From: a bacterium
GTDB lineage: Bacteria; Patescibacteriota; Minisyncoccia; Phycocordibacterales; VMGT01
Length of the DNA: 64,000 nt
Reading direction: 5' to 3'
Assembly: GCA_030697645.1 (NCBI GenBank)
Contig: JAUYPI010000006.1
Span: 76,017-140,016 of the forward strand
The notes beneath the pieces were generated by a model, which made no database searches, was not told the DNA's origin, and saw nothing but the letters and a program-made list of their open reading frames with translations. Position 1 is the stretch's first letter. Each line of letters starts with the position of its first letter. Positions 20,131 through 59,395 of the stretch are shown piece after piece. The translations under genes were made by a program, and so were the position numbers.

Positions 20131-20334
20131 ACCCGCGATGCGTTGACAGAATTATCAGAACGACCAAACGCCTCCCCGTGCGATATCGGGGAGGTGTTTG
20201 GGGGGTTTCTGTGCAACAATTTTTGCTAGAATCAGTTCAATTGTCGCTATGAGCAAAGATGTCGGGCGACCCCCGCCGTGCGAAAGCTCCAAGCTTCAAA
20301 AAACAAGCTCCAGTTCATGTAAATTCCAAGCTCC

Positions 20335-20470
20335 AACCAACAATTTCAAAACAAACTTCAAATTCCAATGCATCAAATCTCAAACACGTACGTCGTGTTT
20401 GGAAATTGGATTTTGAATATTGAGATTTGTTTGGAAATTGTTGGTTGGAAATTGGAGCTTCGTCGTGGTG
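20335..20470. repeat. Intergenic k-mer palindromic element (ttggaaatt family), long imperfect inverted repeat centred on cacgtacgtcgtg
   Basis: caaacttcaaattccaatgcatcaaatctcaaacacg | cgtgtttggaaattggattttgaatattgagatttgtttggaaattg. Shares an exact 21-mer with the element at 59359-59379 (reverse complement). Confidence 0.7.
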
Positions 20471-23275: not shown

Positions 23276-23280
23276 CGAAT

Positions 23281-23317
23281 TTCAAATTTTCAAGTGACCA
23301 ATTTCCAACAGGGCGTC
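23281..23317. repeat. Short copy of the ttggaaatt-family element immediately after the scpA stop
   Basis: cgaatttcaaattttcaagtgaccaatttccaacagg matches 55957-55993 at 31/37. Confidence 0.6.
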
Positions 23318-37300: not shown

Positions 37301-37544
37301 GCGGCTCTTTATCAGTGCGGCTGCGCGCGGCCACATATGCCTCGACGCCGATAATCGGATTGATGTCGTGTTGCTTGCATTCTTTATAAAATTCGATTGC
37401 GCCATACAGATTGCCATGGTCAGTAAGCGCGAGCGCGGGCATTTTGTAGCGTGCTGCGCGTGCTACAAGGTCGGGGATTTTCGATAGTCCATCGAGGAGC
37501 GAGTAGTGACTGTGGGTGTGGAGGTGGATAAAAGGAGCGGGCAT
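34359..37544 (-). CDS. dnaE: DNA polymerase III alpha subunit
   Basis: N-terminal PHP FIHLHTHSHYSLLDG. Pol IIIa core motifs. C-terminal OB-fold. 1061 aa. Confidence 0.9.
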   Translation of the reverse strand: MPAPFIHLHTHSHYSLLDGLSKIPDLVARAARYKMPALALTDHGNLYGAIEFYKECKQHDINPIIGVEAYVAARSRTDKEPRIDNHRFHLTLLAKNIAGYKNLLLLVTKANLEGLYYKPRVDKELLATHRDGLITLSGCMAGELARTLTNRGVEDAERVAREYRDIFGPENYFIEIMHHPGVAGQQKLTQELVSLAHKLEIPLVLTQDSHYLDRDDKRAHQTLLAVQTQNDVGESDLFRGEEDFSFISTEDAYRAFAALPEAVENTSRIAERCAIELELGKLSFPSFTPEGNMAPYAALRAMTIKGLHERNLDLNREALERIEYELNIIDTKGYTSYILVVADLLRFAHQNGILTTTRGSAAGSMVGFLTGITNVDPIALQLPFERFLNPQRPSPPDIDMDFADNRRDEVIDYARKKYGETQVAQIGTFGTMLARGVVRDVARALGKPYALGDKIARAVPMGSQGFPMTIDRAFEMEPDLKKMYTDDAEAREVIDLGKKLEGCVRHVSVHAAGVVISPTPLTDYVPLQRDPKGGKIITQYDMYAVEDAGLPKFDFLGIRNLSILADSVDQTKKMNGAAIDIENLPLDDAKTYRMLARGETVGLFQLSGEAMTHYLIDLKPSTIHDINAMVALYRPGPMANIPEYIARKRGKKPVTYYHPKMQTFLERSLGILVYQEDLLFTAIELAGYNWESVDRFRKAVGKKIPEEMAKQHVIFVEGCMKHSEMTRESAEGLWKLFEPFQGYGFNRAHAASYGKVAYQTAYMKANFPVEYMSAVLTAESGDVEKVAEIIAECKRMGIAVLPPDVNESFGGFTIVDPSLERGKIRFGLYTIKNFGEGIADSIIAARERGGGYKTLQDFLERVRDRTLNHKSLEALICCGAMDALGERGVMRANIEHLLTYNRDHERASTSQGSLFSLMKDISSVPQLRLVDAPSAAPDERLRWEKELLGLYVSGHPLDRYRERLERRGTDIRRMKTELREGMLAVAAGLVENTKQVFTKNGEKMLFATIADLSGSIEVVFFPRTLTECREHLEPERCIAIKGRMSNRNGTVSMIAEAVKAL

Positions 37545-37554
37545 GGTGAGGGTA

Positions 37555-37770
37555 GTATACTACACTTTGATAATAGACCTCTCACAACACAAAACACAAA
37601 CAAAGCACAAATCCAAAAGCCACAAAACACAAACACGTAGTGCAACCGTTTTGGTTTTGGAATTTGTGTTTTGATGTTTTGTTTGTGCTTTGTAATTTTG
37701 GCTTTGGGCTTTCGTTTGTTTTGTTTCGAATTTCGCTATTCAAATTTGTGCTTTTTACAAGCTAACAGCC
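37555..37770. repeat. Intergenic k-mer palindromic element (caaaacacaaa / tttgtgttttg family)
   Basis: caaaacacaaacaaagcacaaatccaaaagccacaaaacacaaacacg...cgttttggttttggaatttgtgttttgatgttttgtttgtgctttg: arms built from the same k-mers in opposite orientation. Confidence 0.65.
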
Positions 37771-37775
37771 ATAAG

Positions 37776-39347
37776 CTACGAGCTCGCATGGTGCCCCAGC
37801 GCCGCGCGGATTTTGCGCTTGGCGAGGCCGGTTTTCACAAAGGCGAGCCACTTCCGCGTCGGCCGGGCGAATTCTCGGGTCTCGATCTCGACGATGTCGC
37901 CGTTGTGAAGTGCGGTGTCAAGTGAGACAAGCTTACCATTTACTTTGACGCCCGAGGCGTGGTCTCCGATTTCAGAGTGAATTGCATAGGCGAAGTCAAG
38001 GGGCCCGGCGCCAAGCGGCAGATCAACCACGTCGCCCTGCGGCGTGAAGACGAACACGCGGTGACTGAAGAAATCGGCTCGGAGGTGCTCGAGAAATTCT
38101 TTCGGGTCGCTGACGTCGGCTTGCGCCTCCGCGAGCTCGCGGAGCCACTCAGGGGTCGCGGGGCTCGCTACGGCGAGCGACGGTTCGTTCGCGCGCGCGT
38201 TTTGGAACCAGTAGCGGTATGAGAGGCGCTGTCCGATCCACGCGAGATGCGTGAGAAGCGAGCGGCTGTCGCCGCCTTCCTTGTAGAGAAAGTGCGAGGC
38301 GATCCCGTATTCCGCTCTCCGATGCATCTCCTCGGTGCGGATTTGAATCTCGACAACGCCGCCGCCCCCTGTGAAGATCGTGGTGTGGAGTGAGCGATAG
38401 CCGTTCGGCTTCGGGAACGCGATGTAGTCTTTGATGCGCCCCGGGAGCGGCCGCCATGTTTTGTGGACAATCCCGAGCGCGCGGTAGCAGTCCTCAACCG
38501 TGGGTACGATGATCCGGAGCGCTGAGATGTCGTACACTTTGTTGATATCCATGTCTTTGCGCTCGAGCTTGCGAAAGAGGGAATAGAGCCCCTTCAGCCG
38601 GAATGACGTCTGTGCCTCGCGGATGCCATCGAGCGCGAGATTTTTTTGGAGCGTCCGATGCACCCCTCTGAGGTGTGCTGCGGTTTCGGCGTCTTTTTCC
38701 TTGAGCAGCGCCGTTACGTGCTCGTACTCTTTCGGGTAGACGAAGGGAAAGGCGAGGTCCTCGAGGTCGCGGTTCAGCGCCCGCATGCCGAGGCGGTAAG
38801 CGAGCGGCGCGTAGATCTCGAGCGTCTCCTCGGCGATGCGTCGGCGTTTGTGTGCCGGCACATGCTCGAGCGTTTGCATGTTGTGCAGGCGATCCGCGAA
38901 CTTGATGATGAGGACGCGGATATCGCGCGCGACCGCGACAAAGAGCTTGCGCAGGCTCTCGACGTGGCGCGTCAGGCCGCGGTATTTGAGGGTCCCGAGC
39001 TTCGTGACCCCTTCAACGAGCGAGAGTATCTCGTCGCCAAATTCCGCGCGTACATCCTCAGCGGTCGCCGGCGTGTCCTCGATCACGTCGTGGAGGAGCC
39101 CCGCGGCGATCGTCTTCGCGCCCATGCCGAACTCGGCGAGTGTCTTTGCCACGGCAAAGACATGCGTGAAGTACGGCTCGCCAGAGAAACGCAGATGTCC
39201 CTCATGCGAGCGCTCCGCAAACCCGTAGGCCTTCTCAATGAGCGCGACGTCGTCTTTCGACGGTTCGCGTATGAGGGAAGTTATGTCCTTGACAGATGGC
39301 ATAGGGGCAGCACACTCATGTAACATTTGACATGTAACATTTGACAC
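37776..39347 (-). CDS. rel: Bifunctional (p)ppGpp synthetase/hydrolase (RelA/SpoT family)
   Basis: HD hydrolase motif GLLHDVIEDT. Synthetase domain RIKDYIAFPKPNGYRSLHT. TGS region. 523 aa (no ACT domain). Confidence 0.85.
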   Translation of the reverse strand: MSNVTCQMLHECAAPMPSVKDITSLIREPSKDDVALIEKAYGFAERSHEGHLRFSGEPYFTHVFAVAKTLAEFGMGAKTIAAGLLHDVIEDTPATAEDVRAEFGDEILSLVEGVTKLGTLKYRGLTRHVESLRKLFVAVARDIRVLIIKFADRLHNMQTLEHVPAHKRRRIAEETLEIYAPLAYRLGMRALNRDLEDLAFPFVYPKEYEHVTALLKEKDAETAAHLRGVHRTLQKNLALDGIREAQTSFRLKGLYSLFRKLERKDMDINKVYDISALRIIVPTVEDCYRALGIVHKTWRPLPGRIKDYIAFPKPNGYRSLHTTIFTGGGGVVEIQIRTEEMHRRAEYGIASHFLYKEGGDSRSLLTHLAWIGQRLSYRYWFQNARANEPSLAVASPATPEWLRELAEAQADVSDPKEFLEHLRADFFSHRVFVFTPQGDVVDLPLGAGPLDFAYAIHSEIGDHASGVKVNGKLVSLDTALHNGDIVEIETREFARPTRKWLAFVKTGLAKRKIRAALGHHASS

Positions 39348-39400
39348 GACGACGGGCGTTCTAGGTCAAATGTCAACGGTCAATTGTCAAATGTTCGACC
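39300..39400. repeat. Intergenic k-mer palindromic element (catgtaacatttgaca family)
   Basis: catgtaacatttgacatgtaacatttgacacgacgacgggcg...ggtcaaatgtcaacggtcaattgtcaaatgttcg. Overlaps the rel start codon. Confidence 0.55.
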
Positions 39401-39419
39401 GGACTTAGCCCCCTGCTGC

Positions 39420-41705
39420 TTATTGCTCGTTGCCTGTTGCTCGTCCGCCCGGCCGGTGATTTGCACACTCTTTATTACTGCAGCGCTCAGGAATGGTTTT
39501 CGTCCCCTCCATCATGAGTGAGCCGCAGAGGGGGCAGATGCGGCCGGTTGGTTTTGCTTTGATTGCATGTTTGCACGCGGGGTAGTTTGAACAGCCGTAG
39601 AAGAGTCCGAATTTCCCGCGCCGCTCCGCCATCTCGCCCTTGCCGCATTTTGGACAAGGAACGCCCGTGCTTGTCGCTTGCTGCGTGCTGCTTGCCGCCT
39701 TTTTAATATACTTGCACTTCGGATACTTGCCGCACCCAACAAACTTTCCAAATTTTCCATCGCGTTCGACAAGCGCGCCGCCGCACTCGGGGCAGCGCTC
39801 GCCGGTCTCCTGGGGCGGCTTCACCTCCTCGCCGTGCTCCGACCGCGCGCCTTCGCATTCGGGAAACCTGCTACAGCTCATGAACGTGCCGGAGCGGCTG
39901 AGCTTCATCACCATGGCGCTCCCGCAGGTCGGGCAGCGAAATTGCTTTGGTGCGGGACCGAGATCCGTGAGCCGCGGGACGTTCTGTCTTGCCGCGACGT
40001 CCTTGCTAAACGGCGTGTAGAAATCGGCAAGCGTCTTGGCATACTCGCGCGCTCCGCGCGCGATATCGTCGAGTTCATCCTCCATCTTCGAGGTGAAGGT
40101 ATCGCTTATGTAGGAGGCAAAATTTTTCTCGAGGAACGTGCTTACGACATCGCCCATCGCGGTGGGCTTCAGTGACCGGCCTTCTTTCTCGACGTATTCG
40201 CGATCCTGGATCGTCTTGATGATGGAGGCGTATGTCGAAGGCCTGCCGATGCCGCGTTTTTCAAGTTCCTTCACGAGCCCCGCTTCGCTGTAGCGTGGCG
40301 GGGGCTGCGTTTGTTTGCCCTCGCTCTCGAGCGAGCGGAGAGTGAGTGGTTCCTCGCGAGCGACTTTCGGAAGCTCGATGTCCTCGCCGCGCGAGGCCGG
40401 GTCCGCGGCGAGCCAGCCGTCAAATTTTGTGCGGGAGCCAATGGCAGAAAATGCGGGAACGTCTTTTGCTTCTATGGGTACTGCGACGCGCGCCGTAATT
40501 TTCGTCTTGATGAGCTCGGCCGCGGCCATCTGGCTTGCGAGCGTACGTGCGCGGATCAGCGCGTAGAGGCGTTTTTGCTCTTCGGTAGCGCCTGCGGATG
40601 CGCGCGTGATGTCCGTCGGACGGATCGCCTCGTGCGCTTCCTGCGCGCTTTTGCTCGTGGTTTTATACTGTCGCAGCGTGACATACCGCTCGCCGAATTT
40701 CTTGGTGACAGCTGCGCCGATTGAGCTCCGGGCTTCCTCTGCGAGCGTCGTCGAATCGGTGCGCATGTAGGTGATGTGCCCCTGCTCATAGAGCTGCTGC
40801 GCAGTGCGCATGGTGCGCGCCGGGGAGAAGCCGAGCCGCGAGCTTGCGGCCTGCTGGAGGGTCGAGGTCGTGAACGGAGAGCGCGGGGCCCGAGACGTTT
40901 CCGTCTCGAGTACCTCGGCGACAATCCAGCTGCCGCTGCGGCCGACTTTGAGTATTCGCTCCGCCTCCTCGCGGGTCTTTGGCTCCTCGACGCACACGAG
41001 CGTCATGCCACTCCCTTTTTTTGTCGCACAGAGCGCGGTGAGCACCCAGTAGTTCTCCGGCACGAACGCGCGGATCTCTCGCTCGCGCTCGACGAGAATA
41101 CGCAGGGCAGGGGACTGCACTCGGCCTGCCGAGAGCCCGTAGCGGAGCTTCTTCCAGAGTAGGCCCGAGAGGTCGTAGCCGACGAGGCGGTCGAGGACTC
41201 TGCGCGCCTCCTGCGCCCTGACGAGCCGCTCGTCAATATCTCGCGGATGCGCGAGCGCTTCTTTCACTGCGCGCTCCGTAATTTCGTGGAAGACCACACG
41301 TTTAACGTTTGGAATTTGGAATTTGGAATTTGGAATTTGTTTGGAGCTTGTTTTTTGGAATTTGGAATTTCCGAGGCCGAGCGCCTCGGCGACGTGCCAC
41401 GCGATCGCCTCGCCCTCTCGATCCGGGTCGGTCGCAAGCAGCACTTCGTCCGCTTTTTTTGCTGCAGCTTTGAGATCGGCGATAACTTTTGTTTTCTCCG
41501 GGATGATTTCGTAGTGCGGCGCGAATCCGTGCGCAATGTCCACCGCGTTTTCATTCTTCTTCGGCAGATCACGCACATGGCCCACCGAGGCCTTGACGCT
41601 GTAGCCCGGCCCCAGGTATTTGCTGATCGTTTTCGATTTTGCAGGAGATTCGACGATGACGAGTTTCATACGAGCAGTATGCAGCGTGCAGCAGGCAGTA
41701 AGCAA
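39420..41705 (-). CDS. topA: DNA topoisomerase I with C-terminal zinc ribbons; contains an in-frame repeat-derived insertion
   Basis: Toprim MKLVIVESPAKSKTISKYLG. Active-site region. C-terminal CPTCGS/CPECGG/CPKCGKG/CPLCGS zinc fingers. Confidence 0.85.
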   Translation of the reverse strand: MLTACCTLHTARMKLVIVESPAKSKTISKYLGPGYSVKASVGHVRDLPKKNENAVDIAHGFAPHYEIIPEKTKVIADLKAAAKKADEVLLATDPDREGEAIAWHVAEALGLGNSKFQKTSSKQIPNSKFQIPNVKRVVFHEITERAVKEALAHPRDIDERLVRAQEARRVLDRLVGYDLSGLLWKKLRYGLSAGRVQSPALRILVEREREIRAFVPENYWVLTALCATKKGSGMTLVCVEEPKTREEAERILKVGRSGSWIVAEVLETETSRAPRSPFTTSTLQQAASSRLGFSPARTMRTAQQLYEQGHITYMRTDSTTLAEEARSSIGAAVTKKFGERYVTLRQYKTTSKSAQEAHEAIRPTDITRASAGATEEQKRLYALIRARTLASQMAAAELIKTKITARVAVPIEAKDVPAFSAIGSRTKFDGWLAADPASRGEDIELPKVAREEPLTLRSLESEGKQTQPPPRYSEAGLVKELEKRGIGRPSTYASIIKTIQDREYVEKEGRSLKPTAMGDVVSTFLEKNFASYISDTFTSKMEDELDDIARGAREYAKTLADFYTPFSKDVAARQNVPRLTDLGPAPKQFRCPTCGSAMVMKLSRSGTFMSCSRFPECEGARSEHGEEVKPPQETGERCPECGGALVERDGKFGKFVGCGKYPKCKYIKKAASSTQQATSTGVPCPKCGKGEMAERRGKFGLFYGCSNYPACKHAIKAKPTGRICPLCGSLMMEGTKTIPERCSNKECANHRPGGRATGNEQ
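41306..41372. repeat. ttggaattt-family k-mer repeat inserted in frame inside topA
   Basis: gtttggaatttggaatttggaatttggaatttgtttggagcttgttttttggaatttggaatttcc, coding GNSKFQKTSSKQIPNSKFQIPNVK on the minus strand. Confidence 0.65.
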
Positions 41706-41841
41706 GCGTCGTGTGCTTGCTGCATGCTGCTAATCGCTTGCTGCTTGTAACAATTACTACAGTTCCTTCGCCTTGGCAAATAAATAAAGTCTCCGACCAC
41801 AGACGTTTGTGATCGGAGACGCATATACGGAAGTCGCTGGT

Positions 41842-42087
41842 TCACTTGATCTCGGCTGCCTCCTCATTTTTTTGGTCGAATTCATGCGCAGCCGCGAGGG
41901 CCATACCGAGAAAAGTGAATCCGAAAATGAAACAGCCTATGACCATGAACGGACTCATGGGCCAAAAACTTGAGAAGTAACCTACTACTGATGTGGCGAC
42001 ACTCACGAAAAATATGCTACAGGACGCCAGGACGAGCGTCTTGTACAGGTCTACCCCACAGTGCGAACACGAGCGGTCTTTCATCAC
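41842..42087 (-). CDS. Small membrane protein (81 aa, two TM helices)
   Basis: Hydrophobic helices VLASCSIFFVSVATSVVGYF and VIGCFIFGFTFLGMALAAA. Confidence 0.35.
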   Translation of the reverse strand: MMKDRSCSHCGVDLYKTLVLASCSIFFVSVATSVVGYFSSFWPMSPFMVIGCFIFGFTFLGMALAAAHEFDQKNEEAAEIK

Positions 42088-42185
42088 AAACCCTCCGGAG
42101 TTGTTGCATATATATTGGGCGCACGGTGTTGCTTGGATGCTTCTTCTGGCAATGAGTAAATCATCTATGCTACCATTGTGTCAAC

Positions 42186-43133
42186 ATGACGCCAATCATC
42201 GAAGTCGAACACCTTATCAAACGCTACCGGAAAGCCACCAAAAACGCCGTGGATGATATTTCGTTCTCGGTCGCGGAGGGCGAGTTTTTTGCCCTCCTCG
42301 GGCCAAACGGGGCGGGGAAGACGACGACGATCTCTGTCCTTACGACGACGCTCGCCAAAACCTCGGGTCGGGTGTTGATTGCGGGCTTTGACCTCGAGCG
42401 CGACGAGCACGCGATCCGCCGCGCCTCCGGCGTGGTTTTCCAGGGCTCCTGCGTGGATCTCAACCTCACGGCGGAGGAGAACATCCGTTTCCACGCATTT
42501 CTCTACGGGCTCTATCCGTTTCGTCCGCTCTACGCGCTGATGCCGCGCAGCTATCGCGCCCGGGTGCATGAGCTCGCCGAGCTCATGGGAATTACCGCGG
42601 CTCTTTTTCAGCCGATGCACACCTTCTCCGGCGGCATGCGTCGCAAGCTCGAGCTCGTACGCTCTCTGATGCACCGCCCCAAGGTGCTCTTTCTCGACGA
42701 GCCGACTGCGGGGCTTGATCCCCTAAGCCGCCGCGCGCTCTGGAGCTATCTCGCCGACATCCGCAAGCGCGAGCGCGTCACGATACTTCTCACGACGCAC
42801 TACCTCGAGGAGGCAGAGAGCGCTGACAACGTCGCGATCATCAACGATGGAAAAATCGTTACGTACGGAACGCCGAAAGAGCTCACGCGCACCCTGCTCG
42901 GGGACACGCTTATTGTAGACGCCGTTGACCGCGGCTCTCTCCGTAGCGCGCTTCTAAAATTCACCAACCGCGTGAGCGAAACGCCGCCGTTTCGCGTTGC
43001 TTTGAGTAAGGACCTACGTGCGCAAGACGTCGTCCGTTCGCTCTCTGTGGAGCTGACGCTATTCGATATTGAACGGCCGACGCTGGAAGACGCATATCTT
43101 AAAATTATTGGGAGCGATACAGATGCGTCATGA
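42186..43133 (+). CDS. ABC transporter ATP-binding protein
   Basis: Walker A GPNGAGKTTT. Signature FSGGMRRKLEL. Walker B VLFLDEPTAGLD. Confidence 0.8.
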   Translation: MTPIIEVEHLIKRYRKATKNAVDDISFSVAEGEFFALLGPNGAGKTTTISVLTTTLAKTSGRVLIAGFDLERDEHAIRRASGVVFQGSCVDLNLTAEENIRFHAFLYGLYPFRPLYALMPRSYRARVHELAELMGITAALFQPMHTFSGGMRRKLELVRSLMHRPKVLFLDEPTAGLDPLSRRALWSYLADIRKRERVTILLTTHYLEEAESADNVAIINDGKIVTYGTPKELTRTLLGDTLIVDAVDRGSLRSALLKFTNRVSETPPFRVALSKDLRAQDVVRSLSVELTLFDIERPTLEDAYLKIIGSDTDAS

Positions 43134-43134
43134 T

Positions 43135-43265
43135 TACGAATGTCAAAGTTCAAAACGCAAGCAAAGTCAAAAGTCAAAACGCAAAAGTCAAAACCGCAGC
43201 CTCAAAGTCAAAAGTTTGAAAGGTTTTAGGCTGTGGTTTTGAGCTTTGACTTTTGCGTTTTGACT
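43135..43265. repeat. Intergenic k-mer palindromic element (gtcaaaagtcaaaacgcaaa family) forming a long hairpin
   Basis: gtcaaaacgcaaaagtcaaaaccgcagcctcaaag...aggctgtggttttgagctttgacttttgcgttttgac. Confidence 0.65.
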
Positions 43266-43277
43266 TGGCTTGTAGCA

Positions 43278-44099
43278 ATGCTCAGGATTATAGCGCGCGC
43301 CTGTACCGTCTTTACCATGCTATTTCACTTTAATGCTATTGTCGCCATTGCCTTCCGCGACCTCACGAAGCTCTTTCGAGACCGAATCCGTCTCGTGGCT
43401 TCATTTGTGTTCCCGTTCATGTTTATCGGGGTCCTTGGTGGCGGGCTCAATGCGAGCTTCGGCGATCGGCTCGGGTTTCAATTTTTGCCGTTTGTGTTTG
43501 TTGGCGTTCTCGCGCAGACGATGTTCCAGTCCTCTGCCGCGGGCGTGATCTCTCTCATCCGCGACCGTGAGACAGACTTCAGCAAGGAGCTTTTCGTGGC
43601 ACCGATTTCTCGCTACGGCATCGTGCTTGGAAAAATCATCGGGGAATCGCTCGTCTCGCTCACGCAGGGAGTGGGTATTGTCGCGTTCGGGCTCATTATC
43701 GGTGTGCCGATTACACTCGCCGCGCTCGCCGCGATGGCGCCGGTTGCGTTCATTTCGGCGCTTTTTGGCGGCGCGTTCGGCATACTCGTGCTCGGCAACG
43801 TCCGCGAGCAGCGCACAACTGCTCAGCTCTTCCCATTTCTCATCTTCCCGCAGTTCATCCTCGCCGGCGTTTTCAACCCAATCAAGGATCTGCCTCCGGT
43901 GGCCGCGTGGCTCTCGCGGATCACGCCGATGACCTACCCCGTTGATCTCATGCGCGGCGTGTTCTACTCGGGCAGTACCGAGAGAGTCTTTGCAGTAAGC
44001 AGGCACCCACTCGCAAATATCACAATCATCGTCGTGCTGTTCGGAGTGTTTCTTCTCCTCGGCACGTGGCTTTTTGTCAGGAAGGAGAGAGAACGATGA
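43278..44099 (+). CDS. ABC-2 type transporter permease
   Basis: Six TM helices. Start at ATG 43278, after the palindromic element. Confidence 0.6.
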   Translation: MLRIIARACTVFTMLFHFNAIVAIAFRDLTKLFRDRIRLVASFVFPFMFIGVLGGGLNASFGDRLGFQFLPFVFVGVLAQTMFQSSAAGVISLIRDRETDFSKELFVAPISRYGIVLGKIIGESLVSLTQGVGIVAFGLIIGVPITLAALAAMAPVAFISALFGGAFGILVLGNVREQRTTAQLFPFLIFPQFILAGVFNPIKDLPPVAAWLSRITPMTYPVDLMRGVFYSGSTERVFAVSRHPLANITIIVVLFGVFLLLGTWLFVRKERER

Positions 44100-44184
44100 C
44101 AGAGGACGCGCCTGCACGAAATCAGAAGCACGAAGCTCGAAATCCGAAACAATATCGAAATCACTGCCTGCGGCAGGCAGGCAA

Positions 44185-45204
44185 ATGCTCAAAACAAAAA
44201 TGCAAAAATTAAAATTACAATTCAATATGCAAAATGTGCTTATTGTTGGCCTCTCGTTCGGTGTGGTCGTCTTGCTCGTGGTGACTGCCCGCGCGGAGCA
44301 CCAACGCAGAAAAGAGGTGCTCCTCCAAAAGAGTACGGCGCTTGAGAGCGTGGTTGCTACAACGACCCTCCCGAGTCCTTTTTCCTCTCTCGCGCTTGAT
44401 GCGCGCGCGGCGATTGTCTGGGACGTCGCTCTAGCCCGTCCGCTCTACAGCCGAAATGCCGACGCACAGCTGCCGCTTGCCTCGCTCACGAAGCTCATGA
44501 CCGTGCTTCTCGCGCATGAGCGTATATCGCCTCCGGTGACACTCACCATCGCGCCGTCCGCTCTCGCACCTGAGGGCGACAACGGGCTTTTCCCGGAGGA
44601 AGAGTGGCGGCTACGCGACCTCATAGGCTATACCTTGATCGTTTCCTCAAATGACGGTGCGCGAGCGCTTGCGGCTGCCGCGGGTAGCGTGGGCGGCATG
44701 GTGAGCGGGCCGTCGTCCGAGAGCAAGGCACTCGAGACATTCGTTACGGCAATGAATGAGCGCGCGATAGAGCTCGGGCTTACGCAAACGTACTTTCTCA
44801 ACGAGAGTGGGCTCGACACCTCCGAGGCGGTGAGCGGGGGATACGGATCCGCGCATGACGTTGCGCGGCTCCTCGCCGAAGCGCTCCATGAGATTCCAGC
44901 GGAGCTCGAAATGACACGCACGAAAGCTCTTGCCGTGCGCTCGCTCTCCGGCGTGGTACACGACGCGGAGAACACCAATGAGGTGGTAAACCGCATTCCG
45001 GCTTTGATCGGCGGCAAAACAGGCTACACCGATCTTGCGGGAGGAAACCTCGCCATCGTCTTTGATGCGGGGTTCGCACGGCCAATCGCCGTCGTCGTCC
45101 TGGGCTCAACACAGGCCGGGCGGTTTAGCGACGTCGAGCGGCTTGTGTGGGCGACGCTGGAGTATCTCAAAGTGTGCACCGCAGAACAAACGATATGCAT
45201 ATAA
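44185..45204 (+). CDS. D-alanyl-D-alanine carboxypeptidase (serine-type, PBP5/6 family)
   Basis: SxxK ASLTK. SxN VSSND. KTG GGKTGYTDLAGGN. N-terminal signal anchor. Start uncertain (44185, 44200 or 44227). Confidence 0.7.
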   Translation: MLKTKMQKLKLQFNMQNVLIVGLSFGVVVLLVVTARAEHQRRKEVLLQKSTALESVVATTTLPSPFSSLALDARAAIVWDVALARPLYSRNADAQLPLASLTKLMTVLLAHERISPPVTLTIAPSALAPEGDNGLFPEEEWRLRDLIGYTLIVSSNDGARALAAAAGSVGGMVSGPSSESKALETFVTAMNERAIELGLTQTYFLNESGLDTSEAVSGGYGSAHDVARLLAEALHEIPAELEMTRTKALAVRSLSGVVHDAENTNEVVNRIPALIGGKTGYTDLAGGNLAIVFDAGFARPIAVVVLGSTQAGRFSDVERLVWATLEYLKVCTAEQTICI

Positions 45205-45224
45205 TCCCCGTCAGGGGCATAGGT

Positions 45225-45370
45225 CACCCGCATTAATTTTCAATTTTGCAATTTTCAATGAATTTTCAATGTGTCAATGACTCAATGGCGGACGACGTCG
45301 TGTTTGAAAATTGTGTCATTGCAAAATTGATTGAAAATTGAAAATTGAACATTGGAAATTTCTGACTCAA
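45225..45370. repeat. Intergenic k-mer palindromic element (caaaattgaaaattg family), copy flanking mraY upstream
   Basis: Shares an exact 24-mer cattgcaaaattgattgaaaattg (45317-45340) and the core cgtgtttgaaaattg with the copy at 46486-46650. Confidence 0.7.
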
Positions 45371-45414
45371 ATGGCCACTGATCTCTGGTCTTTCATGCTT
45401 ACTCTTTTGCCCTT

Positions 45415-46485
45415 ATGATAATAAATGTAGCTAAAGTCTTCCTTCCCGCCACCATTGCTTTCGCGATCGGTGTCGTGTTCGCGCCGCTCCTGGCACACTA
45501 CTTATACCGCTTTCGCATGTGGAAGAAGAGTGCGAAAGCGGTAGCGCTCGACGGCCGTGGTACGCCGATCTTTCACTCGCTCCACCGCGATAGGGAAACA
45601 TCGACGCCGAAACTTGGCGGCATCGTGATCTGGGGAAGCACGCTTGTGACAGTACTTCTCATCAGAATTGCCGAAGACGTCATTCCCTCAGCGCTCACGG
45701 CAAAACTTGAGTTCCTCAGTCGTTCGCAGACGTGGCTGCCACTCGTAACACTCCTCGTGGGGGCAACCATCGGTTTTATAGACGACATGCTTGATGTGCG
45801 GGGAGGCGGAAAGTACCTCGCTGGTGGACTTTCGCTCCGGATGCGGCTCGGTATCGTTGCTTTGACCGGACTCATCGGTGGGTGGTGGTTTTTCACGAAA
45901 CTTGGAGTCTCAAGCATCATAGTGCCGTTTGCCGGTGAGGTGATACTCGGCTGGCTCCTCGTGCCGCTCTTCATCATCGTTCTGCTCGCGATCTACTCAG
46001 GCGGCGTCATTGATGGTATTGATGGCCTTGCCGGCGGGGTGTTTGCGGCGATATTCGGCGCGTATGGTGGCATCGCGTTTTTTCAAAACCAGATTGACCT
46101 CGCGGCATTCTCGGCGGTCGTCGTTGGCGGCATTCTTGCTTTTCTCTGGTTTAACATTCCACCTGCTCGATTCTATATGTCCGAGACAGGCACCATGGGG
46201 CTTACCATGACGCTCGCGGTCGTCGCATTTCTCACCAAGGCCGTCGTCGTCTTGCCCATAATCGCTTTTCCGCTGCTTGCCACAACCGCCTCGGACGTGA
46301 TCCAGCTCGCTTCAAAGCGCTTCCGCGGAGGGAGAAAGGTGTTCCTTATCGCGCCAGTGCACCACCACTTCGAAGCCCTCGGCTGGCCGCCGTACAAAGT
46401 GACGATGCGTTACTGGGTGATTTCGGTCATCTGCGCGCTCCTTGGCATGATCGTGGCCCTCGTGGGGAACCAGGTCACGCTTTGA
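45415..46485 (+). CDS. mraY: Phospho-N-acetylmuramoyl-pentapeptide transferase
   Basis: Polytopic membrane protein with a DD-containing cytoplasmic loop IDDMLDVRGG and HHHFE. Confidence 0.85.
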   Translation: MIINVAKVFLPATIAFAIGVVFAPLLAHYLYRFRMWKKSAKAVALDGRGTPIFHSLHRDRETSTPKLGGIVIWGSTLVTVLLIRIAEDVIPSALTAKLEFLSRSQTWLPLVTLLVGATIGFIDDMLDVRGGGKYLAGGLSLRMRLGIVALTGLIGGWWFFTKLGVSSIIVPFAGEVILGWLLVPLFIIVLLAIYSGGVIDGIDGLAGGVFAAIFGAYGGIAFFQNQIDLAAFSAVVVGGILAFLWFNIPPARFYMSETGTMGLTMTLAVVAFLTKAVVVLPIIAFPLLATTASDVIQLASKRFRGGRKVFLIAPVHHHFEALGWPPYKVTMRYWVISVICALLGMIVALVGNQVTL

Positions 46486-46650
46486 ATTTTCAATTTTCAA
46501 TGCTCAATTTTCAATAAATTTTCAATCCGCCAGCTGGCGGACCCAATGGCTCAATGACGAATCACGGACGAACGTCAGCGTGTTTGAAAATTGATTCATT
46601 GCAAAATTGATTGAAAATTGGAAAATTGATAATTGAAAATTCAGACTCGA
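46486..46650. repeat. Intergenic k-mer palindromic element (caaaattgaaaattg family), copy flanking mraY downstream
   Basis: 24-mer cattgcaaaattgattgaaaattg at 46597-46620. Arms gaattttcaattttcaatgctcaattttcaat / attgaaaattggaaaattgataattgaaaattc. Confidence 0.7.
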
Positions 46651-46707
46651 TATTTTACGTTTTACGCACAGCAGTTTTGGTGTTTTGAATCTTATCGAGT
46701 CCACTTT

Positions 46708-47814
46708 ATGCCCCGTCTCACCTTCGCCAAACCCGACTCTTTTTTCATCGCGATTCTTGTCTCGCTTACGCTCGCGGGCTTTTTCATATTTATTTCGGCT
46801 TCCCTCGGGCTTCTCGCGCGAGGAGGTGCTCCATTTGGAGCGGCGATAGTAAAGCAGCTTCTGCTCGGCATCGTAGTTGGTGGTGGGTGTTCTCTCGCCG
46901 CCACATACACCCCCTACGAGCGTTGGCGCAGATACTCCCCCTGGCTTTTTTTGGCCGCGCTTATTATCACCGCCCTCGTGTTTGTGCCCGGCGTCGGCTT
47001 TGAGCACGGCGGCGCACGGCGATGGATCGCCGTCGGCCCGCTGTCTTTTCAACCGGCAGAATTTTTGAAGTTCGCGTTCGTGCTCTACGCTGCGGCGTGG
47101 CTCGCCGCCCTCGACGAGCGGGGCAGGAAAACGGCCTTTGCTATGCTGCCGGTCTTTCTTATGCTCGCGGCGGTGGGAACGCTGCTCATTGCACAGCCGA
47201 ATACGAGCACGCTCGTCGTTATCATCGTTGCGGTTGCAGGAATGTGTATCGTTGCCGGTGTGCGCGCGCGTGACCTTGCGGCGCTTGCGGGTGTCGCGGC
47301 TGTAGGTATTATCGCGCTCATCATGCTGCGCCCCTATCTCTACGAGAGAATTCAGACGTTCCTTGATCCGTCCCGCGACGCGCTCGGCGCAAGCTATCAG
47401 ATTCAACAGTCCCTGATCGCGGTCGGGAGCGGCGGCGTCTTTGGCCGCGGCTTCGGGCAGAGCGTGCAAAAATTTGAGTATCTCCCCGAACCGATCGGCG
47501 ATTCCATCTTTGCGGTCGCAGCCGAGGAGTTCGGTTTTATCGGCGCGCTCATTTTGATTCTACTTTTCCTCGCTCTCGCCCTGCGCGGATTTCGAATCGC
47601 GGCGCATGCACCGGACAATTTTGGCTCCCTCGTCGTTACCGGCTTCATCATCCTCATCGTTTCGCAGTCATTTATGAATATCGGCGCCATGCTCGCCGTC
47701 TTGCCGCTCACCGGCACGCCGCTTATTTTCGTTTCAAAGGGCGGTACCGCCCTCTTGTTCGCGCTCGCCGAAGCAGGCATAATTGTTAATGTGTCGAGAC
47801 GTGCGAGAGGGTAG
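46708..47814 (+). CDS. ftsW: SEDS-family peptidoglycan polymerase FtsW/RodA
   Basis: About 10 TM helices. Conserved PEPIGDSIFAV and GxSQ regions. Start at MPRLTFAKPDSFF. Confidence 0.75.
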   Translation: MPRLTFAKPDSFFIAILVSLTLAGFFIFISASLGLLARGGAPFGAAIVKQLLLGIVVGGGCSLAATYTPYERWRRYSPWLFLAALIITALVFVPGVGFEHGGARRWIAVGPLSFQPAEFLKFAFVLYAAAWLAALDERGRKTAFAMLPVFLMLAAVGTLLIAQPNTSTLVVIIVAVAGMCIVAGVRARDLAALAGVAAVGIIALIMLRPYLYERIQTFLDPSRDALGASYQIQQSLIAVGSGGVFGRGFGQSVQKFEYLPEPIGDSIFAVAAEEFGFIGALILILLFLALALRGFRIAAHAPDNFGSLVVTGFIILIVSQSFMNIGAMLAVLPLTGTPLIFVSKGGTALLFALAEAGIIVNVSRRARG

Positions 47815-47890
47815 AGGATAGAAAGTGGAGAGTGGATTTTTTACTCCCACACTCTACATTCTACTTTCCACTCTCTACTTTCCACTTTCC
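47815..47890. repeat. Intergenic k-mer palindromic element (ggaaagtgg / ccactttcc family)
   Basis: agaaagtggagagtggatttttt actcccacactctacattctactttccactctctactttccactttcc. Confidence 0.55.
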
Positions 47891-47894
47891 AACC

Positions 47895-49034
47895 ATGAAA
47901 ATTTTATTCACCGGCGGCGGTACTGGCGGGCACTTTTATCCCATTGTAGCTATTGCGGAGGAGATAGACCGTCTCGTCGAAGAGCGCAAGCTCGTCGGCG
48001 TCGAGAAGCACTACATGGCTGCGGAGTCCTATGACGCAGGCCTCCTCCTCGAGCGTGATATCACTTTTCACCACGTGAGTGCGGGCAAAGTGCGGGCGTA
48101 CTTTTCGCCTCTCAATTTCCTCGACATTTTTAAGACTACTGCTGGGCTGCTTCGGGCGATCGTGCGGCTCTACTTTCTTTTTCCCGACATTATCTTCGGC
48201 AAAGGAGGCAGCGAGAGCTTCCCCGCGCTTTTTGCGGCGCGTGTTCTTGGTATTCCAGTGATGATTCACGAATCCGATACCGTGCCGGGAAGGGTCAACC
48301 GCTGGGCAGCGAAGTTCGCGCTTCGCATCGGACTCGGCTTTCCCGAGGCAGCAGCGCATTTCAAAACGATAGATAAGAAAAAAATCGCGCACACCGGCAT
48401 CCCGGTGCGGCGCGAGCTCTTTCACCCCGAGCGCGAGGGCGCACAGGAGTTTCTGCACCTTGAAGCCGGTATTCCTGTGCTTCTCGTCCTCGGTGGCTCG
48501 CAGGGCGCTATGGCGCTGAATGAGCGCGTACTCGACGCCCTGCCGCGTCTTGTCGAGCACTATCAGGTGATCCATCAGACGGGCACGGCAAACATTGAAG
48601 AGTGTACGCGCCTTGCCGCGCTTGTGCTTGAGGGAAGCGAGCAGAGGACGCGCTATCATCCATTCGGCTTTTTCAAAACGCTTGCGCTGAAACAGGCCGC
48701 CGGGGCAGCCGATCTCCTGCTCTGCCGCGCTGGCGCGACAACGATTGCAGAGGCGGCGCTCTGGGGCCTGCCTGCGATCGTCGTGCCGCTCCCGAGAGCC
48801 AAAGGCGACCATCAGCGCGAGAATGCCTTTGCCTATGCCCGCACCGGCGCTGCGGTCGTGATCGAGGAGGCGAATCTAACCAGCACGATTCTCCTTCAGG
48901 AAACTGACCGACTGATGGGCAATGTCACCGAACGTGAACGCATGCGGAATGCTGCGCGTGCCTTCGCCCGTCCCGACGCCGCCTCGCTCATCGCGGACGA
49001 GCTCCTCCGCCTTGGCCTCAAGCACGAAGGGTAA
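47895..49034 (+). CDS. murG: UDP-N-acetylglucosamine--N-acetylmuramyl-(pentapeptide) pyrophosphoryl-undecaprenol N-acetylglucosamine transferase
   Basis: GGGTGGHFYPIVA N-terminal G-loop and a C-terminal GT-B domain. Confidence 0.8.
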   Translation: MKILFTGGGTGGHFYPIVAIAEEIDRLVEERKLVGVEKHYMAAESYDAGLLLERDITFHHVSAGKVRAYFSPLNFLDIFKTTAGLLRAIVRLYFLFPDIIFGKGGSESFPALFAARVLGIPVMIHESDTVPGRVNRWAAKFALRIGLGFPEAAAHFKTIDKKKIAHTGIPVRRELFHPEREGAQEFLHLEAGIPVLLVLGGSQGAMALNERVLDALPRLVEHYQVIHQTGTANIEECTRLAALVLEGSEQRTRYHPFGFFKTLALKQAAGAADLLLCRAGATTIAEAALWGLPAIVVPLPRAKGDHQRENAFAYARTGAAVVIEEANLTSTILLQETDRLMGNVTERERMRNAARAFARPDAASLIADELLRLGLKHEG

Positions 49035-49039
49035 TTTTT

Positions 49040-49130
49040 GATAACGACGGGTTTTGGAATTTTACTTGTTGTTTTACGTTGTTGTTTTGCGCTTTTCGTT
49101 TTGCGTTTTGCATTTTCTGATATAGAGTCA
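49040..49130. repeat. k-mer low-complexity tract (gttttgcg/ttgttttac units) upstream of tRNA-Glu
   Basis: ttttacttgttgttttacgttgttgttttgcgcttttcgttttgcgttttgc. Confidence 0.4.
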
Positions 49131-49137
49131 ATCTCAC

Positions 49138-49209
49138 GGCCCTATCGTCTAATGGCCAGGACGCTACCCTCTCACGGTAGAAATCGGGGTTCGACTCCCC
49201 GTAGGGTCA
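49138..49209 (+). tRNA. tRNA-Glu (anticodon CTC)
   Basis: Acceptor GGCCCTA/TAGGGTC (one G-U). D-loop TCTAATGGCCAGGAC typical of tRNA-Glu. Anticodon stem CTACC/GGTAG with loop CTCTCAC. T-arm GGGGTTCGACTCCCC. Confidence 0.7.
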
Positions 49210-49288
49210 TTGCGGAGAAAACAAATATGTGCTACCATTTTCTTGGTGAACGGCTCTTTGTTTTTGTGTTGAAGGAAAAAAGGAGTAA

Positions 49289-50341: not shown

Positions 50342-50408
50342 AGATCGCTTCGTCTACAAAAGCCGCTCACACACTTGTGTATGAGCGGCTATCTATACGT
50401 ACAGGTTT

Positions 50409-54559: not shown

Positions 54560-55951
<1,392 letters not shown>

Positions 55952-55956
55952 CGAAT

Positions 55957-56064
55957 TTCCAATTTCCAAGTGGTCAATTTCCAAGCAAATTTCAAATGCT
56001 CAAATCTCAAATTAAACTTCGTACTTCGGATTTTGTACATCGGATGTCAGCGTCGGCAATTTTT
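55957..56064. repeat. ttggaaatt-family element after the atpD stop, plus copy 1 of a 24-bp repeat (acatcggatgtcagcgtcggcaatt)
   Basis: cgaatttccaatttccaagtggtcaatttccaagcaaatttcaaatgctcaaatctcaaatt. 56041-56064 matches 62938-62961. Confidence 0.6.
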
Positions 56065-59305: not shown

Positions 59306-59319
59306 ACGCGCATAACGAA

Positions 59320-59390
59320 TTTCCAAATTCCAAAAAACCCGTCTCCAAACACGACGTGCGTGTTTGAGATTTGATGCATTTTTCGCTTTA
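59320..59390. repeat. ttggaaatt-family element after the M23 peptidase stop; contains the exact 21-mer reverse-complement match to 20368-20388
   Basis: cgaatttccaaattccaaaaaacccgtctccaaacacgacgtgcgtgtttgagatttgatgcat. 59359-59379 is the reverse complement of atgcatcaaatctcaaacacg. Confidence 0.7.
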
Positions 59391-59395
59391 TGCAG

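Follow-up and report, generated by a model that had tools for sequence, protein, structure and literature searches.

In enterobacteria and pseudomonads, REP and BIME sequences are dispersed extragenic imperfect palindromes whose RNA stem-loops can protect the mRNA upstream of them. REPs are ~35 nt in length, share one conserved sequence with a GTAG/GTGG head and move by means of a transposase of their own (RAYT). The palindromic elements of Rickettsia (RPE) insert in frame into protein genes, whilst the inverted repeats found at the 3' ends of chloroplast genes are signals for RNA 3'-end processing and stability, not terminators. Imperfect inverted repeats are also the substrate of quasi-palindrome template switching, seen in E. 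coli, in which sequence is copied from one arm of the repeat to the other. This is a point or short-patch mutational process and is not known to build arms of 50–100 nt on a genome-wide scale.

A second group of related systems is built from tandem repeats. Among the long simple repeats of many bacteria, heptamers are the commonest unit, for which the footprint of the polymerase has been proposed as the reason (PMC4692102, PMC4679880). Some GGGAATC arrays in Xanthomonas are arranged as inverted pairs, and in two species the arrays occupy the same gene spacers while varying in length and sequence (PMC4692102), whilst the TAACTGA arrays of Beggiatoaceae terminate beside start codons (PMC4679880). 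Repeats that form hairpins also invade the intergenic DNA of small organelle genomes, those of sponge mitochondria for example (PMC2800124). The TIGR arrays of CPR bacteria and phages have a 36-nt unit with two spacers and are found clustered beside a Nop-domain tas gene (PMC12045711).

The DNA analysed here (the window) is a 64-kb stretch from the chromosome of a tiny uncultured bacterium of the Paceibacteria (CPR), in which long imperfect hairpins fill the spacers between housekeeping genes. An initial annotation had described five such palindromes in the block from dnaE to murG, each built from a short unit private to its spacer that was tandemly iterated and, in every case, mirrored. Four of the five are significant imperfect palindromes. 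The fifth, at 49040–49130, is a tandem array of GTTTTGC without a mirror partner, so that mirroring is not universal. The elements are collected in Table 1, where family labels (F1, F2 and so on) denote related sequences.

Table 1 Heptamer-based elements in the 64-kb window
Feature	Position	Strand	Setting and sequence	Structure
Large F1 element	20284..20465	+	Upstream of RNase HII gene; apex CAAACACGTACGTCGTGTTTGG	Fold z -7.9; arm shuffle z 11.6
F1 half-element	23276..23312	+	CGAATTTCAAATTTTCAAG..., directly after scpA stop codon	
F4 element	37578..37730	-	Spacer downstream of rel, upstream of dnaE; AACACAA and GTTTTGT heptamer arms; apex CACGTAGTG...CCG	Arms 37589-37634 and 37648-37693, centre near 37641; RNA fold -42 kcal/mol, z -2.9; arm shuffle z 5.0
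F5 element	39310..39400	-	Between topA stop (39420) and rel ATG (39302, minus strand); units CATGTAA/CATTTGA, mirror GGTCAAA/TGTCAAC; apex CACGACGACGGGCG	14-mer CATGTAACATTTGA x2.1, 100%, plus mirror; z -2.7
Heptamer array TTGCTCG x3.1	39423..39444	-	Makes up topA last codons and stop codon	
In-ORF F1-type array TTTGGAA x9.4	41308..41370	-	Inside topA; 63 nt = 21 codons	One arm only; no mirror partner within 250 nt (score 5)
F7 element	41678..41755	-	~8 nt upstream of topA ATG; GCAGCAA and TGCTTGC heptamers; apex GCGTCGTGTG	Arm shuffle z 6.0; fold against dinucleotide shuffles not significant, z -0.5
F2 element	43139..43275	+	Between ABC ATPase stop (43133) and permease; GTCAAAA/GCAAAAC arrays and mirror	49-nt arms, 82% complementary, 22-nt perfect stretch; -57 kcal/mol, z -7.4
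F1 element	45232..45365	+	Between D-Ala-D-Ala carboxypeptidase gene and mraY; AATTTTC and ATTGAAA heptamers; apex GGACGACGTCGTG	z -3.8
F1 element	46483..46645	+	Begins on mraY stop codon	z -4.0
Small second hairpin	46646..46702	+	Stem GACTCGATA/TATCGAGTC; TTTTACG/GTTTTGG heptamers in loop	Putative, read from sequence
F6 element	47800..47893	+	Purine arm (GGAAAGT/GGAGAGT), then longer pyrimidine arm (TTCCACT x4.7)	-30.9 kcal/mol, z -3.5
F3 half-element	49040..49130	+	T/G-rich GTTTTGC x4.7 array between murG stop and tRNA-Glu (49138-49209)	No mirror partner; fold z -0.66 (49035-49137)
F1 half-element	55952..56015	+	AATTTCC and CAAATCT heptamers, directly after ATP synthase beta stop codon	No mirror partner; z +0.35 (55950-56080)
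Small F1 element	59306..59393	+	After M23 peptidase gene; core CAAACACGACGTGCGTGTTTGA	

At least six of these elements lie outside the original list, including those on both flanks of mraY (45232–45365 and 46483–46645) and the in-frame topA array; 20284–20465, which falls beyond the range that the initial annotation covered, 23276–23312, 41678–41755, 55952–56015 and 59306–59393 are likewise additions.

The palindromy withstands shuffling: the window contains nine long hairpins, against none in ten block shuffles. Of the elements first listed, F2 forms the strongest hairpin. When the arms were shuffled with their composition preserved, z values of 5–15 were obtained for most elements, and shuffling in blocks of seven nucleotides still left z at 2.6–4.9 for F2 and three F1 copies. 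In the long elements the mirrored order of variant units thus survives 7-mer-block shuffling, indicating that one arm is a real inverted copy of an array that was already variegated. The arms are nonetheless imperfect, with 71–82% complementarity. Across Paceibacteria loci, 42 of 160 heptamer arrays have a reverse-complement partner no more than 250 nt away, compared with 2, 12 and 16 for reversed, complement and direct controls, respectively. Families with different units have an apex motif in common: CGTCGTG occurs 19 times in the window, five times at palindrome centres, where ~0.1 matches would be expected for ~300 nt of centre sequence. Palindrome centres are G+C-richer and the arms are often A-rich and then T-rich, a polarity that is absent from families F6, F7 and F8.

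What unites the elements is a 7-nt register, which was overlooked when they were first described and which makes their common construction stronger than was then supposed. Lag 7 is the best period in 26 of the 27 arms, TRF finds a period of 7, 14 or 21 at every element, and the strongest autocorrelation of all intergenic DNA in the window is also at lag 7 (match fraction 0.307, baseline ~0.26), whereas coding DNA shows period 3 only. Even G+C-rich and purine-only units obey the register. Such a register is expected of arms that grow by slipped-strand mispairing, slippage being read here from the register of single sequences. Heptamer arrays of at least three copies also predominate among the tandem repeats of 161 Paceibacteria loci (160 arrays of period 7, against 51, 40 and 46 of periods 6, 8 and 9), of which 54 contain them, with AT-rich units of many kinds. 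The signal is patchy across the class, with lag 7 the top lag in only 17 of 118 loci. Most of the arrays (139 of 160) lie outside ORFs, and within the window only two, 41308–41370 and 39423–39444, are in coding sequence. The first of these encodes a loop insertion in TopA, GNSKFQKTSSKQIPNSKFQIPN, that is absent from most Paceibacteria TopA proteins and hypervariable in close relatives, where the number of repeats differs.

Several elements abut or supply the ends of genes. The initial annotation rightly suspected that they distort ORF starts: mechanically called ORFs begin inside elements at 43233, 46633 and 47832, whilst independent gene calls place the ftsW ATG at 46708, 5 nt past the end of the small second hairpin, and the murG ATG at 47895, 4 nt past the end of the F6 element. 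An in-frame ATG is found at 43278, immediately beyond the F2 stem, and the ftsW TAG stop codon is supplied by the F6 head, GCGAGAGGGTAG. Across the Paceibacteria loci, arrays are denser in co-directional spacers (0.65 per kb) than in convergent (0.14) or divergent ones (0.21), and for 38 of 121 arrays a stop codon is no more than 10 nt away. This location, mostly between co-directional genes and abutting the upstream stop codon, suggests that the elements are transcribed into stem-loops. They are not canonical terminators, a possibility that we considered and rejected: a terminator scan of 36000–50500 found none at the elements and returned a single strong terminator-like match (41820–41789, minus strand), and T-runs are absent from the 3' flanks, so that no U-tract follows the stems. 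Nor do they match an RNA family of Rfam: in the window the gathering score is reached by tRNAs and one SAM riboswitch only, and the elements resemble plant microRNA precursor hairpins only below that threshold.

The units are not private to their spacers. The two F1 elements flanking mraY are 84% identical over 99 nt (46483–46645 against 45267–45360), and the F1 half-elements at 23276–23312 and 55952–55984 are 88% identical over 33 nt. The F1 terminus, CGAATTTCCAA, is conserved in four copies, and F1 also has a conserved apex. Further copies of F1, F2, F3 and F6 are found elsewhere in the window and in non-orthologous spacers of related genomes; homologous copies thus occupy unrelated loci, as those of MITEs do. 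F2 (43139–43266) matches positions 8196–8320 of the related locus L083, which there lie in the mraY–ftsW spacer (82% over 128 nt), and F1 at 59310–59351 matches L083 3350–3391 (95% over 42 nt). The F6 sequence of the ftsW–murG spacer has homologues immediately 5' of the topA ATG at two other related loci, L163 and L164, and these copies have the non-repetitive head GCGAGAGGGTAGA in common with that of the window. The F3 array at 49040–49130 has relatives in L083, in the outer arms of composite elements, one of which (3206–3430) has the layout [F3L][F1L]core[F1R][F3R]. Family identity between genomes is therefore 82–95%, compared with 66% at four-fold degenerate sites (window against L083), although in distant genomes low-complexity similarity inflates apparent homology.

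Comparison with L083 also reveals change in place. The element at 59306–59393 is orthologous to L083 14928–15098; the core and 3' end are kept but the L083 arms are different and larger, pointing to large insertions and deletions in the arms around a shared core. In all of the orthologous dcw spacers compared an element is kept but its hairpin sequence has been swapped, each of those in L083 carrying a significant hairpin from another family (z -3.8 to -6.7); conservation in relatives, which the initial annotation had raised as a check, therefore extends to the position of the hairpin and not to its sequence. Gene-order breaks between the window and L083 coincide with elements. The initial annotation had suggested a local generative process or a shared structural role, and had argued against the spread of an element on the ground that each spacer had its own sequence. 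The 7-nt register, the mirrored order of units and the change in place support a common principle of construction, but the argument against spread is not supported: because the families occur at non-orthologous spacers whilst synonymous identity is only 66%, copying from one site to another is involved, yet this is not transposition of one single element. Among the 56 ORFs of the window we found no transposase, integrase or REP-associated transposase (including RAYT, a Y1 HUH enzyme), and therefore no agent there for the spreading step and no cognate autonomous transposon. Inspection of the F1 and F2 borders recognised no target-site duplications.

Our preferred explanation, held with moderate confidence, is that the elements form a lineage-wide class of inverted repeats that arises from heptamer slippage and intrastrand mirroring, disperses in a REP- or MITE-like manner and gives rise to intercistronic stem-loops when transcribed. 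Spacer DNA that is AT-rich grows in tandem in a 7-nt register, the signature of slipped-strand mispairing that is displayed by the arrays themselves. An array may then be copied in inverted form, by intrastrand template switching, with a short, G+C-richer palindrome as its centre that in many cases resembles CACGAC/GTCGTG, and the same process may keep the two arms similar. The evidence for this step is that the units run in mirrored order and that imperfect arms contain perfect tracts, both of which quasi-palindrome template switching would explain. The outcome of a further step, the copying of finished elements into other spacers, is seen in the recurrence of F1, F2, F3 and F6, both within this genome and in non-orthologous spacers of relatives. 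They decay through large deletions into half-elements, and occasionally one comes to lie in frame in a protein loop that tolerates it, as in topA, or donates stop or C-terminal codons. Transcripts would carry A·U-rich stem-loops of 30–60 bp (-30 to -57 kcal/mol), whose most likely role would be as intercistronic RNA structures, acting as 3'-end barriers or processing sites in the way that E. coli REPs and chloroplast 3' inverted repeats do. The F6 copies of L163 and L164, which lie in a divergent (5') spacer, do not fit a pure 3'-end role.

It is also possible, if unlikely, that the elements are a pure by-product, functionless debris of slippage and template switching that is tolerated where harmless in a small, presumably repair-poor genome. 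Fast sequence turnover at orthologous spacers, the partnerless decayed half-elements (49035–49137 and 55950–56080), the hypervariable topA insertion and the patchy occurrence among Paceibacteria are all in keeping with this, as is the lack of a significant sense-strand bias: the sense RNA folds better than the antisense in 14 of 19 hand-picked elements, and in 11 of 17 of an automated set (binomial p 0.17, Wilcoxon p 0.14). Against it, the family sequences are more similar between genomes than synonymous sites, an element is retained in every dcw spacer compared, each a significant hairpin in L083, arrays are enriched between co-directional genes and an apex motif is shared across families of different units. 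Were the elements instead classical MITE- or REP-like sequences, with a transposase encoded elsewhere that recognises their ends or the CACGAC/GTCGTG centre, the heptamers would be secondary. We regard this as quite unlikely, despite the copies at non-orthologous sites, the conserved F1 terminus and apex and the gene-order breaks at elements, as transposition leaves the universal 7-nt register unexplained and the ~10 families with unrelated arms would demand either many enzymes in a probably small genome or a single structure-recognising one; the absence of a transposase from the 64 kb and of visible target-site duplications also counts against it.

The G+C-richer centres, the A-then-T arms and the starts at or near stop codons recall bidirectional intrinsic terminators, and ordinary terminators of this genome, at 27931, 29351 and 62783, have A-tract and T-tract extensions of the same sort. 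That the elements are overgrown terminators, with a short central G+C-rich stem and slippage-expanded flanks that still terminate or attenuate after each gene, is distinctly improbable given stems with no following U-run that the terminator scan missed, three families (F6, F7 and F8) without the polarity and an F6 element directly upstream of start codons; terminators in all spacers of the dcw cluster would also be unusual. Very improbable, in our view, are protein-binding arrays in which the heptamer serves as a ruler, with a cold-shock or OB-fold protein on each U/T-rich heptamer of RNA or single-stranded DNA, or else cruciform or nucleoid sites. B. subtilis CspB is reported to bind directly repeated heptamers, with one protein on each and a preference for T-rich sequence (summarised in PMC4679880), the register spans unrelated units and many 3' arms are of the TTTTGNN type, but there is no common unit, G+C-rich and purine-only units keep the register too and no cold-shock gene was recognised (window ORFs of at least 45 aa in large gaps and larger ORFs were scanned). 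An assembly artefact, whether fold-back chimeras or mis-joined low-complexity reads, is extremely improbable. Short-read assemblies from the same population do break inside or beside elements (L081 starts at 43301, L082 spans window positions 45319–46514 and L286 spans ~41338–43190), but two further assemblies match the window at 100% identity across whichever elements they cover, the arms are imperfect where fold-back artefacts would be perfect, and independent relatives from other samples have the same architecture.

How, then, do these elements compare with the systems already described? TIGR arrays were considered and rejected, as the period is 7 and not 36, the hairpins are single and dispersed and Pfam identifies no Nop-domain gene in the window. 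The hairpins of organelles have no 7-nt register, and the setting here is a bacterial chromosome. Like MITEs and RPEs, the elements are non-autonomous palindromic repeats with multiple copies at unrelated sites, and the F1 array inside topA is in frame as RPEs are; unlike them, the arms consist of heptamers in tandem and not of unique sequence, neither target-site duplications nor a cognate transposase were found, and the topA insertion is a single arm in place of a whole palindrome. Similarly to REPs and BIMEs, they are dispersed extragenic palindromes, found at the 3' ends of genes and between genes that are transcribed together, but they are 70–220 nt long with low-complexity arms and many sequence families, and they have no common head, GT(A/G)G or other, and no near-identical unit of 20–40 nt. 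As with chloroplast 3' inverted repeats, nearly every gene has its own stem-loop downstream, the sequences differing from one to the next. Intergenic heptamer repeats are already known from the STRR sequences of cyanobacteria (Calothrix and Nostoc), Xanthomonas GGGAATC and Beggiatoaceae TAACTGA, all mainly intergenic tandem arrays of 7-nt units, and the elements described here are a variant of that kind. Their host, however, is a CPR bacterium; the units are mostly AT-rich, not G-rich, and so lack quadruplex potential; ~10 unrelated units coexist in 64 kb where those genomes have one or a few dominant ones; and mirroring into hairpins of 70–220 nt, the exception in STRR-type repeats, is here the rule.

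Long imperfect palindromes are a genuine feature of the spacers in this region. The initial annotation described five of them across the dnaE-rel-topA-ABC-dcw block (dcw being the cluster with mraY, ftsW and murG). Four fold better than their dinucleotide shuffles, and the fifth, beyond murG, is a tandem array without a mirror partner (see table). These z-scores are conservative because dinucleotide shuffles leave the arms complementary in base composition; when shuffling was performed arm by arm, z was 5-15 for most elements. Self-complementarity likewise exceeded that of shuffled controls, with nine long hairpins found in the window by an ungapped scan and none in ten block shuffles. Inverted repeats were detected by anti-diagonal scan, BLAST self-search being too strict and missing imperfect palindromes. 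Three strong hairpins, two of which flank mraY, and four smaller or half-elements (single arms without a mirror partner) had previously been overlooked.

Heptamer elements and other features. Positions are in the window unless another Paceibacteria locus (L number) is named; z, fold against dinucleotide shuffles.
Position	Feature	z
37580-37725	Hairpin, dnaE-rel spacer	-2.9
39305-39405	Hairpin, rel-topA spacer	-2.7
43135-43280	Hairpin, ABC ATPase-permease spacer (family F2)	-7.4
47805-47900	Hairpin, ftsW-murG spacer (family F6)	-3.5
49040-49130	GTTTTGC array after murG, half-element (family F3)	-0.66
45232-45365	Hairpin, one side of mraY; overlooked	-3.8
46483-46645	Hairpin, other side of mraY; overlooked	-4.0
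20284-20465	Hairpin; overlooked	-7.9
23276; 41678; 55952	Smaller or half-elements; overlooked	
59306-59393	Smaller or half-element; overlooked; orthologue at L083 14928-15098	
L083 3206-3430	Composite element	
13786-13818	Perfect 8-nt tandem repeat GTTGGATA x4.1, overlapping the start (13811) that was called mechanically for the next ORF	
60510-60542; 62974-63006; L083 17178-17220; L163 ~6995-7040	33-nt hairpin TTGCAATAAC(A/T)ATGCGATCGCTTGCTTATTGCA	
3680-3708/3803-3831; 32011-32040/32199-32228; 60271-60324/60407-60460	Long inverted repeats, large spacers	
L005 14831-14888, 16795-16852; L049 14031-14078, 16667-16720; L043 11752-11803	Perfect palindromes, 48-58 nt	
7233-7397/8858-9022	Segmental duplication: 165-nt direct repeat, 84%, including a TGATTCT heptamer array	
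7330-7421; 8955-9046; 10395-10486	Transketolase-half gene 5' end, three copies	
8273-8355/9952-10034	83-nt repeat, 86%	
27986-28058 (minus strand)	tRNA	
29430-29527 (minus strand)	SAM riboswitch (S-box, 54 bits)	
28305-29350 (minus strand)	Genes downstream of the riboswitch; the upstream-most is 28841-29350	
53129-54559	476-aa ORF without a Pfam match	
52201-53121; 54584-55951	ATP synthase gamma; alpha/beta-family subunit gene	
1489-3654	Sigma-70 family protein, 721 aa	
56578-56597; 42158-42185; 37545-37575 (minus strand); 12740-12763	Extended -10-like boxes TGCTAGAAT; TGCTACCAT; TAGTATACT; TATAGTAAT	

A single rule unites these elements, namely a register of 7 nt. At every element Tandem Repeats Finder returned period 7 (or 14 or 21), whatever the unit (AACACAA, CATGTAA, AAAGTCA, AATTTTC, TTCCACT, GTTTTGC, TGCTTGC and TTTGGAA among others), and lag 7 was the best autocorrelation lag in 26 of 27 arms from the window and close relatives. 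It was also the strongest lag across all 9.4 kb of the window's intergenic DNA (0.307 versus ~0.26, the signal recurring at lags 14 and 21); in coding DNA period 3 alone was seen. Since period 7 runs throughout, the units of 9-20 nt initially proposed are in fact composites of heptamers. The 8-nt tandem repeat is among the few short-unit arrays off this register.

Nor are the units private to single spacers, as was first supposed, since the same families recur within the window and at other spacers in relatives. Over 99 nt, the elements on either side of mraY are 84% identical, and at least six copies or half-copies of family F1 (AATTT[TC]CAA) occur in the window. The terminus of this family, CGAATTTCCAA, is conserved, as is its centre, CAAACACG...CGTGTTTG. 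An exact F1-core pattern had no match across the fetched loci because relatives carry variant cores. L083 is a locus of a close relative, with 88% identity to the window in MraY, ~82% in genes (nucleotide) and 66% at four-fold degenerate sites. Here an F2 homologue lies in the mraY-ftsW spacer (82% identity over a 128-nt stretch that takes in the non-repetitive centre), an F1 element occupies the ftsW-murG spacer and a palindrome of AGCTTTT units lies upstream of mraY. In two further relatives (L164 and L163), F6 homologues sit immediately before the topA start codon and have in common with the window the non-repetitive F6 head GCGAGAGGGTAGA; in the window this head supplies the ftsW stop codon. 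With regard to conservation in relatives, orthologous spacers cannot otherwise be aligned, yet the hairpin in each L083 dcw spacer is significant (z -3.8 to -6.7). Hairpins of other families at orthologous spacers, taken with the 66% identity at four-fold sites, point to a pattern in which position is kept while sequence is exchanged, the family sequences being conserved better than synonymous sites. Breaks in gene order between the window and L083 coincide with heptamer elements, among them those that follow scpA and murG and the one preceding the carboxypeptidase gene, suggesting that the elements mediate rearrangements.

Comparison of individual elements gives some indication of how they change. 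The orthologous pair at window 59306 and in L083 has its centre and 3' end in common and different arms, whilst the L083 composite has nested arms in the order [F3][F1]centre[F1][F3]; given this nesting, half-elements such as that after murG are plausibly deletion remnants. The order in which variant heptamers follow one another is mirrored in the long elements (block-shuffle z 2.6-4.9), and F2 contains a 22-nt perfect tract within arms of 82% complementarity, both of which would be expected products of intrastrand template switching. Centres are richer in G+C, often CACGAC/GTCGTG-like, and hold five of the window's 19 CGTCGTG sites. The arrays also enter coding sequence: a surface loop of TopA, short in most Paceibacteria and hypervariable in close relatives, carries an in-frame F1 array (63 nt, nine heptamers, 21 codons), and the TopA C-terminus is formed by another heptamer array.

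A class survey of 161 Paceibacteria loci (2.2 Mb) found that period 7 dominates arrays of at least three copies, with 160 of them; at periods 6, 8 and 9 there were 51, 40 and 46, respectively. Such heptamer arrays occurred in 54 of the 161 loci, with many different AT-rich units, and about a quarter had a reverse-complement partner within 250 nt, far over controls. Their density was 0.65 per kb in co-directional spacers, 0.14 in convergent and 0.21 in divergent ones, and a stop codon lay within 10 nt of the array in 38 of 121 cases. The signal is patchy, lag 7 being the top lag in 17 of 118 loci, and strongest in the window's own clade.

If transcribed, the elements would give A.U-rich stems of 30-60 bp with predicted energies of -30 to -57 kcal/mol. 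Several span the interval from the upstream stop codon to 0-8 nt before the next start codon: those at murG, rel, topA and probably the permease, at ftsW through a second small hairpin, and at L083 ftsW, L164 topA and in the relative L102. This stop-to-start span may simply be that of an element filling its spacer. The most likely role is that of REP-like or chloroplast-like stem-loops serving as intercistronic barriers or in processing. The main rival is a purely selfish or neutral origin. As to RNA-level selection, sense RNA was the more stable strand in 14 of 19 hand-picked cases, a suggestive excess, but an automated set gave just 11 of 17, which is not significant (p 0.17); covariation between the two F2 copies amounts to one compensatory pair in 29, from two sequences only.

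Several known classes were rejected. No T-run follows the elements and the terminator scan does not detect them, unlike canonical terminators; a scan for canonical promoters likewise had no hits there. No Rfam family matched, whether at gathering or at E-value thresholds. TIGR-Tas arrays need a 36-nt unit in clustered arrays beside tas genes, an unlike architecture. As to a phage origin, an F2 19-mer had no match in viral contigs and an F1-core 15-mer only single, chance-level matches. A bolder reading, which we consider improbable, is that a molecular ruler, and not chance slippage, sets the 7-nt register, and that mirrored arrays with a common CACGAC/GTCGTG centre constitute a Paceibacteria-specific punctuation system. 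Such a ruler might be the footprint of a polymerase or primase, or else an RNA- or ssDNA-binding protein reading one heptamer per monomer. Punctuation would take the form either of an obligatory stop-hairpin-start intercistronic device or of a new, structure-recognising mobilisation of small elements. In favour of the former, the stem in several cases reaches from the upstream stop codon to 0-8 nt before a start codon that lacks a Shine-Dalgarno sequence, a geometry suggestive of coupling or shunting.

The window and other Paceibacteria loci hold further repeats. The conserved 33-nt hairpin, whose copy at 62974 is followed by a T-run, looks like a second, non-heptamer, terminator-like family. 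The three long inverted repeats are of normal complexity, with 82-158-nt loops and arms up to 97% complementary, and the perfect palindromes of L005, L049 and L043, also of normal complexity with zero-length loops, are another kind of hairpin than the heptamer elements. ORFs in the 5.3-9.4 kb interval of the window had no Pfam matches. The tRNA (Rfam, 47 bits) was not reported by ARAGORN. The first gene downstream of the riboswitch matches the cobalamin adenosyltransferase family, the 476-aa ORF lies between the two ATP synthase-region genes tabulated, and the sigma-70 family protein has an N-terminal extension of ~450 aa before region 2. No more than 5-11 nt separates the four extended -10-like boxes from the start codons downstream of them, a spacing which suggests that leaderless or very short-leader mRNAs are frequent in this genome.

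The window, a housekeeping region, comes from an uncultured member of the Paceibacteria (Parcubacteria, CPR/Patescibacteria) whose genome has ~55% G+C and whose MraY is only 71-73% identical to that of the nearest species representatives. Pfam upheld the initial labels rel, ABC ATPase, ABC permease and D-Ala-D-Ala carboxypeptidase gene; mraY, ftsW and murG are backed by gene calls on an identical contig and topA by homologues. No transposase or integrase was recognised among the 56 ORFs (Pfam on 50 of 56; dnaE, topA, mraY, ftsW and murG identified otherwise), and inspection by eye recognised no cold-shock protein among small ORFs in the large gaps. Look-ups of identical proteins (MraY, the ABC ATPase and a 54-aa protein) led back to the same population alone, at 100% identity. 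Where two further assemblies of this population overlap the window, they match it at 100% identity, and their contigs stop in or beside elements, which argues that the elements are real and that they break short-read assemblies. Contigs of other assemblies of this population (L081, L082 and L286) end in or beside heptamer elements at window 43301, 45319, 46514, ~41338 and ~43190, and the related MAG L163 has runs of N at repeat-bearing sites. Heptamer elements are thus a practical cause of fragmented assemblies and also of mis-called gene starts.

CPR/Patescibacteria genomes are very small and known mostly from metagenomes, and to our knowledge their non-coding DNA has hardly been described; we found no prior description of CPR intergenic hairpins of this kind in the literature. 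Since they occupy many intercistronic spacers, keep their position while exchanging sequence and leak into protein loops, heptamer-built hairpins are a major component of this intergenic DNA. If they shape transcripts, they would also represent the chief visible level at which these organisms are organised post-transcriptionally. They further offer a natural system for asking why bacteria favour 7 nt as a long repeat unit.

Two studies (PMC4692102, PMC4679880) describe heptamers as over-represented among long bacterial simple repeats, with intergenic families in Calothrix/Nostoc, Xanthomonas and Beggiatoaceae. Some Xanthomonas heptamers form inverted pairs, with positions conserved and sequence varied, and a polymerase footprint has been proposed to explain the heptamer preference (PMC4692102, PMC4679880). 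Compared with these families, what is new here is the number of different units in one small genome, their systematic mirroring into long hairpins around a common centre, the spread of families combined with turnover at positions that stay fixed, and a CPR host.
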